Positions 370 through 23,580 of a DNA stretch of 28,484 bases are shown here, piece after piece. The DNA is from a virus (lineage: Duplodnaviria > Heunggongvirae > Uroviricota > Caudoviricetes). The notes below the pieces were generated by a model that did not search any database, was not told the DNA's origin, and saw only the letters and a list, made by a program, of their open reading frames with translations. The position numbers and the translations under genes are program-made. The stretch lies in IMG/VR virus record IMGVR_UViG_3300009614_000107; one strand, written 5' to 3'. Every line of letters starts with the position of its first letter. Position 1 is the first letter of the stretch.

Positions 370-1341
370 TCACTGCTGTTGGAGTGGAATTATTGTCTCA
401 AAACGCCTCATTGTATTTCGGATTGAGACAGGTGTAACATTGAAAATGTAGCCAACATCATCCTGTGTGATATTGGTGTTCTGATTGCGGTGTAAGTAAA
501 ATGATGCTGCTGAGACAACAAATGGATTCTTGCCAATCATTTCCCTTTTGACTGCTTCGAGCTTAGTGAAGTCTATGGACTTAGACATAATGTCACGTAT
601 TTCGTCTTGTGGGATTTTCTTCTCTTCTGCATACTTGAGAAGTGCATCCTTCTTAGATGTGATTACCATCTCACACGTGATTTTGCAGGATTGAACCCCA
701 GCTTCCTTGGCATCCTTGACAGCATCGTAGAGGCATCTAATCTGATCGTGTCCATCGACTTTGCTGTATCGAGTATAAACATCTTTGAACTGGAGTGGTG
801 TTTCTGAGTTTGCTGGACACTTAGAGAGCAGATAGATTAGGGCAGCTATGGTAACATGGTATGCTCTTCCACGGAAGTTGGCAAGACCGATCTTCTCACC
901 AATCTCGTGCTTTAGGAACATCTTGTCCGACTCTGAGAAGTCATAGCATATTATATCAACAACATTTGAGATGTTGTCTGTCACGTGCCTAATTCGCTTG
1001 CGCTCTCTGCTCTTTTGGCTGTACTTAGGAAGCCTTGCTTTTTGCCTATCTCTGGTTTCTGTAAGCATTCTTTCTCTAGTTGCACGAAGTTCATCGTATC
1101 GATCAAGAATTGTCTGTCGCATTCCATCTTCAAGTTCTATGATGCACTTACCATTTATGAAATGGATTTTGATGCCTGGAATCTTGTTTACTGCTGTCCT
1201 TCGATGAAGTGTCTTGGACATATATTCTGGATCGTTGCAAACGACCTCATTCATTTTCTTGTTACCACGTACAAACTTTAAGATAATCTCGTCACGTGGT
1301 GTAATTCTCGGTGGTACTACTCCTTTTGGCATATTAGTCAA
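370..1341 (-). CDS. Transcription factor B (TFB/TFIIB)-like protein, two cyclin repeats, no N-terminal Zn ribbon
   Basis: FRGRAYHVTIAALIYLLSK resembles TFB repeat 1 (RGRS...AA.LY); GKNPFVVSAASFY...ITQDDVGYIFNVTPVSIRN resembles repeat 2 and its HTH (GK.P...AAA.Y...TQ.EVA....VTEVTIRN). Confidence 0.8.
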   Translation of the reverse strand: MTNMPKGVVPPRITPRDEIILKFVRGNKKMNEVVCNDPEYMSKTLHRRTAVNKIPGIKIHFINGKCIIELEDGMRQTILDRYDELRATRERMLTETRDRQKARLPKYSQKSRERKRIRHVTDNISNVVDIICYDFSESDKMFLKHEIGEKIGLANFRGRAYHVTIAALIYLLSKCPANSETPLQFKDVYTRYSKVDGHDQIRCLYDAVKDAKEAGVQSCKITCEMVITSKKDALLKYAEEKKIPQDEIRDIMSKSIDFTKLEAVKREMIGKNPFVVSAASFYLHRNQNTNITQDDVGYIFNVTPVSIRNTMRRFETIIPLQQQ

Positions 1342-1379: not shown

Positions 1380-2270
1380 TTATTGTTTCTTACTAGTGGT
1401 CTTTCCGAACTGTGTTTTGAGAGTGTCTTTCCAGTCCTTGTTGTCCTGTTCCTTTTTCTTTTTAATACGCTTGTCGATGAGTGTGGTCCAGTTGTACATT
1501 CCATCACGGACATACTTTGGAATCTTGTACTCTTCACGGTATATTTTTGGTGGACCACCATCTATCTCGATTACAGTAGCACCGATGCTTGGTGTGATGT
1601 TTGCTGATTTCTTTGCCATAAATGGAGTAGTATATTGCCAGCAACCATTTAGGATTCCCCAGACACCATTATCATCTTGGACGGAATAGAACCTGTGCTG
1701 GTGGCCACGAATGATAATATCTGGTCCATCAATTTTGTTTTTAGCAGCGTCCTTCTCAGACTGAAGCATTTCACGAATAATGTAGGAAGATGGATTGACA
1801 ATTGATACCGAGCCACCGTGTGTAGCCTGGATTTTTACAGTGCCTCTTCCATTGTTGTTGACATCAAACTCGAAGATATCTCCCATATATTGACCACCCA
1901 TACCTTCGAGAACCCTGCGATCTATGTTTGTCGCTTGACCAAGACCACCGTGATAGCCACTGCCATTCACACCAAAAACTGTGGTCTTGTTTGTAATCAT
2001 CTTGTCAAATAGTTCAATGACCATTTGGACTTGCTCATCTGTGTCTGTGACAAGTGCGTCTACACCTAAGTTTTTGGCTTGTGAACCGTCAGCTAAGTCA
2101 CCCATTGTTAAAATATAATCGGGTCCATTGTGTCGCTTACAAAGGTCAAGCCAGCATACGTGAATCCACTTTAAAAATTCGTTATTCCTGTCACGTGGCA
2201 CGGATGATGGTGATGCTAAACCATAGATTGAGCCAATATGTGTATCGCCAATGGCGATAATTTTTACCAA
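1380..2270 (-). CDS. Calcineurin-like metallophosphoesterase
   Basis: Motifs GDTHIG, MGDLADG, GSGYH (GNH variant), ATHG, RGHQH in canonical order. Confidence 0.85.
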   Translation of the reverse strand: MVKIIAIGDTHIGSIYGLASPSSVPRDRNNEFLKWIHVCWLDLCKRHNGPDYILTMGDLADGSQAKNLGVDALVTDTDEQVQMVIELFDKMITNKTTVFGVNGSGYHGGLGQATNIDRRVLEGMGGQYMGDIFEFDVNNNGRGTVKIQATHGGSVSIVNPSSYIIREMLQSEKDAAKNKIDGPDIIIRGHQHRFYSVQDDNGVWGILNGCWQYTTPFMAKKSANITPSIGATVIEIDGGPPKIYREEYKIPKYVRDGMYNWTTLIDKRIKKKKEQDNKDWKDTLKTQFGKTTSKKQ

Positions 2271-2921: not shown

Positions 2922-2959
2922 AATATATAAAGAAAGGGGTGCGTTTATAAGTGTTTGTG

Positions 2960-3105
2960 GCTTTACTGCACTTTACTTAACTGTACTTTACACCACTGTA
3001 CTCCACTGTACTGCACTATACTATTCTGCTTTGCTTTACTTTACTATACTTGACGTAACTTCACAGAACGATACTACACTCAACTTCACTAAACTTCTCT
3101 GCTTT
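2960..3105 (-). ncRNA. Two tandem 73-bp pentamer-repeat guide-like RNA units (putative VIPR-like guides A and B)
   Basis: Each unit on the minus strand is AAAGCAGA-(NN-AGT)x12-AAAGC (A 2960-3032, B 3033-3105). The array starts within the stop codon of the RAMP gene. Confidence 0.8.
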
Positions 3106-3670
3106 AAGACTTCTTTTTAACTGGCTCGAATTTGGCAACCTCAAACCTACCGTATTTTGGGCGATAAGTTCCGATGCCCTTCTCCTTGCCAGCTATCTCA
3201 AGAAGTTCCTTCAATGTTTCACCCTCTATCAAACTTTCGTCTGCTACTCTAAGGATGAAATCGAACTCCCAATCATTCCAAATTGGTCGAGCAATCGGTA
3301 CTCGGCCACGAGTTGCAGGAATTACTCCAAGACGAACATCCGTCTGGAAATCCTTCCCATTTTTGAACGGGATCTCGATTGGGAGAACTACAACGTTGGT
3401 TTTCATCATATCCTTGTAGGTTTTCTTTCCTCTGCCTGGGATAGTTTTGGAACTGCCAACATTGATCAGTGCGCCTTCGATATGATCTGAAGGCTGGTAA
3501 ATATCTCCTTTTACATTTTTATAGAGGCACTTTTGAACCTCTTCTGCTGGGTCAAAAACAGAACCACGAACCTTCTTTTTTGTGATGCTTAAAGCATCAA
3601 GAGGGTATCGGTTGTGCATAAGGGGAACGACTCCCCTTATCTTTACTGCATAGTCTAACAAATTATACAC
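3104..3670 (-). CDS. Stand-alone RAMP/Cas7-like protein (putative Vipr-like guide-binding effector)
   Basis: N-terminal strand VKIRGVVPLMH, central IYQPSDHIEGAL (cf. RAMP PYIPGSSLKGAL), C-terminal Gly-rich loop GIGTYRPKYGRF; flanked on both sides by pentamer arrays; no other cas genes in the window. Confidence 0.75.
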   Translation of the reverse strand: MYNLLDYAVKIRGVVPLMHNRYPLDALSITKKKVRGSVFDPAEEVQKCLYKNVKGDIYQPSDHIEGALINVGSSKTIPGRGKKTYKDMMKTNVVVLPIEIPFKNGKDFQTDVRLGVIPATRGRVPIARPIWNDWEFDFILRVADESLIEGETLKELLEIAGKEKGIGTYRPKYGRFEVAKFEPVKKKS

Positions 3671-3697: not shown

Positions 3698-3709
3698 TTT
3701 ATAAATATT
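3698..3709 (-). promoter_or_regulatory. AATATTTATAAA promoter of the RAMP gene and guide A/B transcript
   Basis: Exact motif 28 nt upstream of the GTG start. Confidence 0.75.
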
Positions 3710-3720
3710 AGCGAAAATTT

Positions 3721-3822
3721 GGTGGCTTCAAGTTTTGTTCAGCCACCCTTTACTTAACTTTACTTTACAGGACTTTACTCTACTCGACATTACTTAACAG
3801 CACATTACTATACTTGAGCAAG
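3721..3822 (-). ncRNA. Stand-alone pentamer-repeat guide-like RNA C with own promoter and 3' hairpin
   Basis: Minus strand TTGCT-(NN-WGT)x13 (pentamers 3752-3816)-AAAGG, then stem GGTGGCT/AGCCACC (3721-3727 and 3741-3747); promoter AATATTTATAAA at 3844-3855. 5' end estimated. Confidence 0.8.
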
Positions 3823-3928: not shown

Positions 3929-4015
3929 CTACTTTTTCGCCTTTCGCCTATTATACGACTTGACATGAACGACCTTATTTTTTTGGTGTCGTGTGTACGA
4001 TTTTACGTGTGGCAT
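3929..4015 (-). CDS. 28-aa basic peptide, putative virion DNA-binding protein (missed by ORF track)
   Basis: MPHVKSYTRHQKNKVVHVKSYNRRKAKK*; internal HVKSY repeat; same AGGAGGGTAG RBS (4023-4032) as the capsid-like genes. Confidence 0.75.
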   Translation of the reverse strand: MPHVKSYTRHQKNKVVHVKSYNRRKAKK

Positions 4016-4100: not shown

Positions 4101-4307
4101 TTAAATCTTGTCAGATGACCTTGCAGCAACTGATATACCTACAAGTAAAGCTATAAGTACCAATATGCTGGCCATTACGTTGGCAGCCGATGTGAGGTTA
4201 GTTGAAGCAGCAGCCATAAATCCTAATGTAGCGATTAGAAGTACTACAGCTATAGCTACGACATATCCCAATATTGGTCGAGTTGTATCGAGCAGACCTT
4301 CTCCCAT
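4101..4307 (-). CDS. Putative major capsid protein of spindle-shaped virus type, copy 2
   Basis: 68 aa, two long hydrophobic helices joined by a short polar loop with an NLT sequon; RBS AGGAGGGTAG at 4315-4324. Confidence 0.65.
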   Translation of the reverse strand: MGEGLLDTTRPILGYVVAIAVVLLIATLGFMAAASTNLTSAANVMASILVLIALLVGISVAARSSDKI

Positions 4308-4410: not shown

Positions 4411-4617
4411 TTAAACCTTGTCTGCGCTGCGTGCAGCGACAGAGATCCCTATGAGTAGGGCAATCAATACCAAGATGCTCGCCATTACGTTGGCAGCAGA
4501 GGTAAGGTTTGCACTTGTTGCAGCCATAAAGCCTAGGGTAGCGATTAGCAGTACCACGGCAATTGCCACAACATAACCCAATATGGGACGTGTAGTGTCA
4601 AGTAGACCTTCACCCAA
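4411..4617 (-). CDS. Putative major capsid protein of spindle-shaped virus type, copy 1
   Basis: 63/68 aa identical to 4101-4307; TTG start; RBS AGGAGGGTAG at 4625-4634; TTTATAT box near 4698-4704. Confidence 0.65.
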   Translation of the reverse strand: MGEGLLDTTRPILGYVVAIAVVLLIATLGFMAATSANLTSAANVMASILVLIALLIGISVAARSADKV

Positions 4618-16534: not shown

Positions 16535-17302
16535 TTGGCACAAAACACAAGAGAACAAAATAGAGAAGCAGTAGCCAAGAAGTACAGTCTGCCAGATGCA
16601 GACATTCGTGATACAGTAACTATTTCACAGTTACTTTACAGACAAATTGAGAGATGTAACCAGGCTGGTTCGAGTAATGAAAATCTGAACTTTGAGGGAA
16701 CAGTTGATGTCCTTTTCCAGATGGTTCCAAACCACGTTAGACAGTCTGTTGTTGGTCGTGTAAAAGAGTATAAACAAACCACGGAGAAACCAGTCTACAG
16801 ATACAATGCTGGCACACCGATTGGATCTCCAGAGCACCCAGTAAGATTGCCAGACGGGACAATTTGGAGTCCGATTATGGAGAAGTCTGAATTCATAGAC
16901 TATAGGTTGCTCTTCAACATCATAATGCAGGAACTTGAAAATTCTAAGATTACTTGGCGTTATGATTCAATGACTATGGAGCTCGGAAAAGTAGATGTTG
17001 TTGAAGTTGAAATTCCAATCGAGACTCAGGAGAAAGCCAAAATATATCTAGAGAAACTTATCGAAGAAGATAAGAAGGCTGGATATGATTACGCAGAAAT
17101 CAGTGCAGAAAGTGCATATTACAATCTATGTAAGAAGATAACACCTGAGATTCCTCCACCATCACCTGTGTTCAAGGAAACTAACGCAGACTTTGATGTA
17201 GATGATACTGAGGATACAAAGGAGGGAACACAGGCTCTTCCTGAAGCAGAAGAGGGAGAAGAAGTAGAGGGAGAAGGTGAGGGAGAAGAAGATGAGTCGT
17301 AG
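16535..17302 (+). CDS. Hypothetical protein with acidic C-terminal tail
   Basis: 255 aa; GGAGG RBS; E/G-rich tail. Confidence 0.75.
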   Translation: MAQNTREQNREAVAKKYSLPDADIRDTVTISQLLYRQIERCNQAGSSNENLNFEGTVDVLFQMVPNHVRQSVVGRVKEYKQTTEKPVYRYNAGTPIGSPEHPVRLPDGTIWSPIMEKSEFIDYRLLFNIIMQELENSKITWRYDSMTMELGKVDVVEVEIPIETQEKAKIYLEKLIEEDKKAGYDYAEISAESAYYNLCKKITPEIPPPSPVFKETNADFDVDDTEDTKEGTQALPEAEEGEEVEGEGEGEEDES

Positions 17303-18542
17303 CAATAAATCTCTTGTAGATGTCGCAAAAATCAAAGATGATAGGTCTAAGAAGAAAAAAGAGAAAACATCAGATCACGCTATAGATGTTCTCTCGACTC
17401 CTGGCACGACAGAATATGTTGAAAATCATAAGCCAAAAGAGGAACTAAAAACTCCAGACCAATTATTTCCGTCAAAGTACAAAAACCTAAGACCAGGGGC
17501 TAATGTTCTCGAAGAGGGTATTCAAAATTGGAATGGATTTAAAGTTCCTGTGTCTGGTGGAAAAACAGCAGAGTTCTTCAATCTGATTGAGAGCAGGAGA
17601 AAGAAAAACCAGTCGTGTATGATTATTATCACTGGTGATCCAGGTGGCGGTAAAACTTACGCTGCCCTCAGACTTGGAGAAATTTTCGACTCTCGATTTA
17701 ATGTTGAAGTTACTCCATACGATGAGCCTGGAAGATCACAGGTTACTTTCGGCAGAAAGCAACTTATGCACTTAATCGGAAATGACACTCCACTACAGAG
17801 AGAGCAAGTGATAGTCATAGATGAAGCTCAGTTTGCTATGGGTTCAAGACGCTGGTACGAAGATGTACAGAAAGACCTGATAGAGCAGATTGAAGCTGTA
17901 CGTTCCAGAGGCTTTGTGATAATTATTGTTTCGCTACACCTAAACCTTCTGGACAATATTATCAGACGTTACGTCCTAACCTTTATGATTCATATGGAGG
18001 ATAGAGGACGTGGAGTCGTTTACAGACTTTATACTCCCAGATTCGAATCTGAGATGAGGAAGAAGAGGCTTGGTTCCATTCAGTTGAATTTGCCGAACTA
18101 TGAGTACTGTAAACACCCAGACTGTTTGAGATGCCCATACCTCTATCCAGAGGATCCCAAAAAAGAGTGCATTCTTTTGAGAGCAACCTATGAGAGAAGC
18201 AAGAAGGCTTTCATCGGTAACAAGAACATAGAGAAAGAGGCACAACACGAAGCAAGGGAGAGAAAGAGAAGCGGTGCTCCACCAGTGGCAAGGCAACTAG
18301 AGAAGGCAACAGCCAAGATTACACAGGATATTGAGAAGGTTGCCCAGAGAGAAACCGCAGAGGCAGAGATAGCCAACAAAATTATAGATCATCAGGACGA
18401 ATTAAGGGTGGACGAGCGTTCTGGAGCCTACGAAGCCAGTTCAGCCCAGGAAATCCTGAACAAGTACTATAGTCTTGTAATCAGTCGTGAGAGAACGAAG
18501 AGAATCCTCAAAATAATTCAAAAAAGGCTAAAATCTCGTTAA
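17292..18542 (+). CDS. P-loop ATPase (Zot/AAA-like; putative packaging or assembly ATPase)
   Basis: Walker A IIITGDPGGGKT, Walker B VIVIDEAQ, Cys cluster CKHPDCLRC; likely start ATG 17292 (track start 17277). Confidence 0.85.
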   Translation: MSRSNKSLVDVAKIKDDRSKKKKEKTSDHAIDVLSTPGTTEYVENHKPKEELKTPDQLFPSKYKNLRPGANVLEEGIQNWNGFKVPVSGGKTAEFFNLIESRRKKNQSCMIIITGDPGGGKTYAALRLGEIFDSRFNVEVTPYDEPGRSQVTFGRKQLMHLIGNDTPLQREQVIVIDEAQFAMGSRRWYEDVQKDLIEQIEAVRSRGFVIIIVSLHLNLLDNIIRRYVLTFMIHMEDRGRGVVYRLYTPRFESEMRKKRLGSIQLNLPNYEYCKHPDCLRCPYLYPEDPKKECILLRATYERSKKAFIGNKNIEKEAQHEARERKRSGAPPVARQLEKATAKITQDIEKVAQRETAEAEIANKIIDHQDELRVDERSGAYEASSAQEILNKYYSLVISRERTKRILKIIQKRLKSR

Positions 18543-20202: not shown

Positions 20203-21060
20203 ATGGGTGTTAGACAAGGCGGTTGGGCTCCACGTCAGCCTCTATTGAGTAAAGACGTTTTGAACGCATTGAAGGAAGATCTCATTCCATTGTGGGATGA
20301 GGGATTGAGTGCAGAAGAAATAGCAGACAGACTGGAGTTCGGTAAGTACCCATATGAAGATTTGAAAACTTATCACGTTTGGTACTATAGAAAACAATTT
20401 GGTTGTCAGAAAAGAAAGGGTGGAATTGAGAAAGGAAAGCCACGTTATAATGTCAAGCCTGATGTTATTGAACCACCAACCATTCAGGAAATTGAAGCCA
20501 AATTGAATGAAGTCTATCCACTATTGAAAAACAATGCTGGTGCAACTGACCTCAACACATTGATGGTTAGAGCATACATCTGGTTGCACAGATACAGTCC
20601 ACTGAGAAAAAGTGAGATATATGAGAGGGAACTAGGTGACTTCTACATTGATGAGAAAGCAAAAATACTAACACTTCAGAACTTTATCAGGAAAAAGAAA
20701 TTAAAGGGTAAAGCAAAAGAAGCACCTTTCCTTATCCCCTTGGATTATCCACACGTGATGGATGAAATTGTCACCTATCTTGTAAGAAGGATTGAACGTA
20801 CACAGGATTCGAGTGCCAAGGCATTTCCAATGTCGGGTTGGGTTGCCTGGAACAGAATGAAGAAAGCCTTCCCAGATATGTACCCACACTACTGGAGATT
20901 CAAATATATCACAGAGTCTGCCAGTGACCCAAACGTCCCTATTGAAGATTTACTAGCAGATACTGATCTAAATTTACTGACTTTGAGGCGTTATATGATG
21001 ACGGGTGAAAGACAACGTTTGGCTTCATTACAGAGAAGGAAACAGAGAGAACTTGTTTAA
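20203..21060 (+). CDS. Tyrosine recombinase/integrase with N-terminal HTH
   Basis: Catalytic pattern R (PLRKSEI), K, HxxR (PHYWR), Y (TLRRY); N-terminal GLSAEEIADRL; GGTGA RBS. Confidence 0.8.
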   Translation: MGVRQGGWAPRQPLLSKDVLNALKEDLIPLWDEGLSAEEIADRLEFGKYPYEDLKTYHVWYYRKQFGCQKRKGGIEKGKPRYNVKPDVIEPPTIQEIEAKLNEVYPLLKNNAGATDLNTLMVRAYIWLHRYSPLRKSEIYERELGDFYIDEKAKILTLQNFIRKKKLKGKAKEAPFLIPLDYPHVMDEIVTYLVRRIERTQDSSAKAFPMSGWVAWNRMKKAFPDMYPHYWRFKYITESASDPNVPIEDLLADTDLNLLTLRRYMMTGERQRLASLQRRKQRELV

Positions 21061-21140
21061 AGTTCTCTTGTTTCGCTTTAGTTCACACCACTGTACTATA
21101 CTATACTTAACTTTACTCGACTAAACAGTACTAAAGCAAT
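21039..21140 (-). ncRNA. Orphan pentamer-repeat guide-like RNA D with own promoter and 3' hairpin
   Basis: Minus strand TTGCT-(NN-AGT-type)x11 (21080-21134)-AAAGC; hairpin 21039-21053 / 21061-21074 spanning the recombinase stop; promoter AATATTTATAA at 21161-21171. Confidence 0.8.
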
Positions 21141-23383: not shown

Positions 23384-23503
23384 TTAACTGTAACGTCTTG
23401 CTTTTCTGCTTGGCTTCATTGCTTCACGGAGAATATCATCAAATTTCTCATACTTATTTGGCTCTCTGTAGCCGTCCTTCTTTTTCTCGGTGTTTGGCTT
23501 CAT
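23384..23503 (-). CDS. Small basic protein (39 aa)
   Basis: MKPNTEKKKDG...; true start lies downstream of the promoter at 23534-23545. Confidence 0.5.
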   Translation of the reverse strand: MKPNTEKKKDGYREPNKYEKFDDILREAMKPSRKARRYS

Positions 23504-23533
23504 ATTGCATCGAAGTAGTAGAGGTGTGATAAG

Positions 23534-23580
23534 TTTATAAATATTTACAGCTAATCTGAGTGATTGTGAATATTTATAAA
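23534..23580. promoter_or_regulatory. Divergent pair of AATATTTATAAA promoters
   Basis: tttataaatatt 23534-23545 (minus) and aatatttataaa 23569-23580 (plus), each about 30 nt from a start codon. Confidence 0.75.

Follow-up and report, generated by a model that had tools for sequence, protein, structure and literature searches.

A wobble-skipping guide of a VIPR system in a probable archaeal virus from peat matches the Walker A motif of restriction-type helicases

In VIPR systems, pairs of variable bases (NN) in the guide read DNA with a skip of one base, usually at the wobble base, and the resulting complex acts as a repressor of transcription (10.64898/2026.04.26.720920). In the type II systems of phage SUSP1 and of a P. 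fulva prophage (10.64898/2026.04.26.720920, 10.64898/2026.04.26.720927), a stand-alone RAMP protein of about 20 kDa is combined with guides of 9-16 five-nucleotide repeat units, and residue D177 of the SUSP1 protein reads the G that opens the repeat (10.64898/2026.04.26.720927). WGT/NN repeats are a reported, non-canonical VIPR-like variant (10.64898/2026.10.21.760802); in the accessible part of that source, they adjoin a Vipr-like fold, as does the repeat class described here, and neither targets nor a link between residue and scaffold are given. The published VIPR targets are satellites, prophages, other VIPR loci and REP decoys. In one of these cases, guide vrRNA4 of SUSP1 is directed at the active site of a satellite recombinase, and the escape-limiting logic of such a choice has been shown (10.64898/2026.10.15.759431). 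The VIPR system, its skip rule, the WGT/NN repeat variant and active-site targeting are thus already published. Searches of the main texts (as distinct from the data tables) of VIPR papers turned up no restriction gene as a target, and the October preprint on VIPR does not contain the string "methyl" in its main text.

The window analysed here is the whole 28,484-nucleotide stretch of IMG/VR virus record IMGVR_UViG_3300009614_000107. Its parent contig of about 197 kb comes from peat (JAFMOA010002524.1, deposited by PMC8626947), 53 kb of it (27%) were seen, and the virus occurs in seven sequencing runs from peat or wetland. Peat assemblies that contain it include JGI 3300018005 and 3300038450 as well as SRR5824233, SRR13021855 and SRR7028477. 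The features of the window are listed in Table 1. The vipr open reading frame has no match in Pfam or PADLOC. Its structure model (pLDDT 85.5) contains the RRM, thumb and G-loop of a RAMP protein and has Csm3/Cas7 as its top Foldseek matches (E 7e-8); no CRISPR-type repeats are present in the window and the gene stands without cas genes. Vipr is 28-30% identical, over 90% of its length, to Felixounavirus open reading frames that are flanked by runs of GGY pentamers and have GVGDWRP as their G-loop.

Table 1. Position and strand of the VIPR features in the window
Feature	Position	Strand	Description
TATA-like box just past guide A	2944..2951	minus	bounds the array
Guide A	2960..3027	minus	12 variable dinucleotides on AGT scaffold; last unit of array
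Separator with register shift between guides B and A	3028..3037	minus	same kind of junction across the clade
Guide B	3033..3100	minus	directly after vipr stop; decodes to receiver-domain-like string
vipr	3104..3670	minus	188 aa; stand-alone RAMP fold; G-loop GIGTYRP
TATA-like box upstream of vipr	3698..3705	minus	consensus match only
Guide C and 3' hairpin	3721..3819	minus	pentamer unit 3819-3747
Self allele of guide D site	20977..21009	plus	inside recombinase-like ORF 20203-21060
Orphan guide D and 3' hairpin	21030..21137	minus	pentamer unit 21137-21070

When the locus is compared with type II VIPR, the stand-alone RAMP of about 20 kDa, the one-base wobble skip, the presence of guides both upstream and downstream of vipr, the viral location and the lack of a nuclease are shared, and the guide loci in the window, with 11-13 AGT/NN units each, fall within the range of 9-16 pentamers. 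The scaffold is AGT/TGT rather than GGY, and the AGT/NN repeat is a class related to, but outside, the strict GGY/NN consensus. The G-loop contains a threonine instead of the aspartate that reads the first G, the guides end in a hairpin or have no tail instead of a pseudoknot, the virus appears to be archaeal, and the motif predicted to be targeted is that of restriction-type helicases. A vap DNA-binding accessory gene was not recognised; the neighbourhood of vipr encodes a membrane protein and a metallophosphoesterase and includes a TFIIB-like open reading frame. The metallophosphoesterase gene (window 1380-2270) adjoins vipr or lies near it in many loci of the clade (L031, L033, L035, L038) and is a candidate accessory gene.

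The residue equivalent to SUSP1 D177 is threonine in 18 of 18 scored clade loci with an A-first scaffold and aspartate in 71 G-first loci, a split which, since these loci are related, counts as about one event and not as many. Five further AGT loci have threonine (three) or serine (two) at this position. It is likely that the aspartate-to-threonine change in the G-loop tracks the G-to-A change in the scaffold, as a co-change of protein and RNA, which suggests an orthogonal Vipr/guide pair.

The skip of one base, on the wobble position, holds at this locus. The 1,189 dinucleotides taken from about 99 guides of the AGT-scaffold clade correlate with sense codon positions 1-2 with r=0.92, and with the antisense ones with r=0.21. 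Searches with skip lengths of 0, 2 and 3 gave no match beyond the guide itself. Guide D matches the recombinase allele of a sister element (L142:933-965) in frame with 21 of 22 bases; the two recombinase genes are 87% identical. To the virus's own recombinase-like gene it matches with 18 of 22 (82%), slightly over the 80% cut used for published natural targets, and its exact pattern has no match in IMG/VR. The SUSP1 guide vrRNA4 likewise matches its own element less well than it matches rivals. The 21/22 match of guide D and the codon-position correlation make sense, in-frame decoding of guide A legitimate; read in this way, guide A RNA could pair only with the DNA template strand.

The dinucleotides of guide A, on the minus strand from 3027 to 2960, are AT AT GC AC GG AC GG AA AC TA AA GC. 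Taken as codon positions 1-2 they spell [IM][IM]ATGTG[KN]T[Y*][KN]A, which reproduces the decoding of the initial annotation, (I/M)(I/M)-A-T-G-T-G-(K/N)-T-Y-(K/N)-A, made from the sequence alone. The constant triplets, with a period of five bases, are mostly AGT, with one AGA and one TGT, and the guide finishes in a scaffold-like AGT-AA-AGC. Pair 1 falls in an AGCAG-Axx junction that does not vary among several related arrays, and may be scaffold instead of reading the target. No stable hairpin is found 3' of the guide (fold z-score 0.83), and the TATA-like box that follows probably serves the next gene as its promoter. The guide A sequence is identical in four other assemblies, and no variants of the array were seen among the contigs examined. 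An isoleucine or methionine, and not a glycine, before ATGTG fits motif I of SF2 helicases better than it does a GxxGxGKT P-loop.

Allowing up to three mismatches, guide A finds a match in 8 of 401 small bacterial genomes and in 5 of 101 Verrucomicrobiae genomes, or 13 of 502 unrelated bacterial genomes. Eight of these matches were translated; all lie in frame on motif I of a DExH helicase, and identical codons are seen in the remaining five. In the 101 Verrucomicrobiae genomes, reversed controls, guide B and a guide of a sister virus all gave zero. The nine central pairs of guide A have 92 matches in IMG/VR, of which 80 were scored; 79 of these are SF2 Walker A motifs, 77 of HsdR type as judged from motif context and two in phage helicases. 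The best score, 22 of 24 bases, is reached by 68 of the 80 loci, in which the three pairs left out of the search match four of six bases. This score (92%) is also the highest in any of the collections searched, is nearly always found at VMATGTGKTYTA, and exceeds the 80% match cut for natural VIPR targets (10.64898/2026.04.26.720920). The same VMATGTGKTYTA is the motif I consensus of the EcoAI/FtnUII family of HsdR proteins (NF046051), matched by guide A in frame and in sense. Four matches that were tested pass the NF046051 cut-off. The recurrent mismatches are at pair 1 (AT in the guide, GT in the gene) and at pair 11 (AA in the guide, AC in the gene); if pair 1 belongs to the scaffold, the score becomes 21/22.

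No contig of the viral, genome and metagenome collections matches all 24 bases of the pattern exactly. For the peat community the metagenome part of this null is weak, as the virus's own Vipr was not recovered from the same collection (best 72%). The ten-pair pattern ending at pair 11 has no viral match. In agreement with the initial annotation, which had placed no gene with the motif in the window, the best score is 16/24, both there and across the 53 kb seen of the parent contig. The Walker A motif of the AAA ATPase encoded in the window was considered as a self allele and rejected, nothing in the window scoring above 16/24. A random 12-pair guide with the composition of the clade would reach 22/24 against this one motif with a probability of about 6e-11; once millions of similar motif windows and four guides are taken into account, we estimate the chance to be near or below 1e-3.

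Guide A is a genuine VIPR guide whose match to the motif is convincing; its target is a prediction. The reading of the initial annotation as a Walker A motif of SF2 or HsdR type is borne out, since the best gapped matches are in-frame, sense copies of SF2 motif I, mostly in EcoAI/FtnUII-family HsdR genes, and not out-of-frame or non-helicase sites. That the guide is directed at an SF2 helicase motif is probable. The narrower assignment, to the Walker A codons of an EcoAI-family hsdR gene on the chromosome of the archaeal host or on a mobile island resident in it, has in our view an even chance of being correct. The putative target gene is not part of the virus locus. The proposal that the virus silences a host restriction or defence helicase, or the helicase of a competitor, stands as regards the motif family; the HsdR evidence is evidence for a family and not for a particular target gene, and the HsdR matches of known source are all bacterial, with no archaeal allele among them. 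HsdR genes are also common, so they would head the match lists whatever the true target.

On the preferred reading, vipr and guides B and A would be co-transcribed from the box at 3705, and the transcript would then be cut at the separators. Vipr subunits would polymerise on the AGU triplets and present the dinucleotides. Those of guide A would then pair with the template strand where an hsdR-type gene encodes its Walker A motif, skipping each wobble base. By analogy with SUSP1 (10.64898/2026.04.26.720927), the bound filament would block transcription, leading to less restriction of the virus. Escape of the target would require a change in a near-invariant motif. In this respect guide A resembles vrRNA4 of SUSP1, which is also wobble-aligned on an essential catalytic stretch, thereby limiting escape; the target of vrRNA4 is a satellite gene and its silencing was tested, whereas that of guide A is a predicted defence-gene family (10.64898/2026.10.15.759431). 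We infer an anti-restriction role for guide A. The virus encodes an N6/N4 DNA methylase, a usual anti-restriction trait that would be in line with the targeting of HsdR. The wider picture, of an archaeal virus using VIPR for RNA-programmed anti-restriction, with guide A silencing the HsdR family of the host and the other guides attacking sister viruses, is put forward tentatively and falls somewhat short of an even chance.

Guide A could instead be directed at an SF2 helicase (ResIII/DEAH type) encoded by a rival virus or mobile element, perhaps one related to this virus, in keeping with the role between viruses published for VIPR; we consider this rather unlikely. Two phage helicases (L148/L204) tie with HsdR at 22/24, and stand-alone phage helicases with IMATGTGKT score 19-21/24 and, like guide A, have isoleucine at pair 1. 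Published natural VIPR targets are mostly rival elements, and guides C and D, and less securely those of L063 and L038, match homologues of genes of their own element. A self allele may lie in the part of the parent genome beyond the 27% seen, but the 53 kb seen contain no such helicase, no viral helicase scores better than HsdR, and 77 of the 79 SF2 core matches in IMG/VR are of HsdR type by motif context. The resemblance to a helicase may also be coincidental, the guide being read as I[IM]ATGTGNTY[KN]A and directed at the gene of a Thr/Gly/Asn-rich virion or surface protein of a rival element. An AA pair cannot separate lysine from asparagine, and all nine IMG/VR matches to pairs 3-11 are non-helicase reading frames with ATGTGNTY. 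These score 18-20/24, one of them 21/24, below HsdR, with several base mismatches at the flanks, and the low chance probability per motif window of the HsdR score makes this explanation improbable. That guide A is a relic or an unexpressed unit, drifted from a former target and now silencing nothing, is very improbable: it has two fixed mismatches to the family consensus and lacks the 3' hairpin of guides C and D and of the L260 guide, but internal array guides of relatives also lack hairpins, its scaffold is intact over 12 units, its sequence is identical across samples, and it is predicted to lie in the vipr transcript.

The other guides of the virus and its clade have varied readings. Guide B has no match in any of 101 bacterial genomes. 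Guide C resembles the end of a short basic reading frame of the virus itself (3929-3967) with 21 of 26 bases. A similar pattern of self-resemblance, at C-terminal gene ends and not above shuffles, is seen for the guide at L063:2286-2368, against L063:248 on the same contig (21/30), and for that at L038:2033-2105, against the reading frame L038 2134-3420 (21/28). A fifth AGT guide, also an orphan, is located outside the window (L260:23370-23465, plus strand), directly before a tRNA-Pro gene, and has a TATA-like box to itself as well as a hairpin resembling that of guide C. In a 77%-identical sister virus, the guide at L005:9547-9609 decodes to VLDSACGTG, a string like the SAM-binding motif I of methylases, with no exact viral match and none in 101 genomes. 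Three further guides of the clade (L074:1159-1206, L062:5-72 and L067:4663-4740) give, by eye only, a radical-SAM-like TGGEP string and P-loop-like strings. The motifs of the panel used for shuffle tests were chosen after the guides had been seen, and the resulting P-values are not blind.

The TATA-like boxes and the TFIIB-like reading frame point to an archaeal host. The TFIIB-like frame (window 370-1341) has a weak Pfam match and a homologue at the same place in the sister virus L005; atlas look-ups with this frame hint at Archaea and Thermoproteota, with scores under 0.9, and Bathyarchaeia would be a guess. The tRNA genes of the virus, two for Gln and one each for Pro and Ser (L260:22318-22475, 23468-23541; L236:11878-11962), are useful for assigning the host. 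The window also contains tandem, near-identical 68-residue hydrophobic proteins of two helices (4101-4307 and 4411-4617) and a Zot-like ATPase (17277-18542); in combination with this ATPase, the tandem proteins could be those of the capsid of a spindle-shaped or filamentous virus, which would be unusual for a genome of 197 kb. A locus with a 60% identical Vipr and AGT guides (L038/L049, CAZALZ010000057.1) occurs in a bacterial genome bin without a TFB gene and is probably a mis-binned contig of an archaeal virus.

If the assignment is true, a guide against a restriction motif would extend VIPR from conflict between viruses to conflict between virus and host defence. It would also show why a gapped code pays: by reading just the first two positions of each codon in a near-invariant motif, one guide would cover most alleles of a family. 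Among 79 distinct sites retrieved, a single gapped guide covers 69 and the best contiguous 36-mer 7, a comparison that is partly circular, as the sites were selected with the core of guide A.
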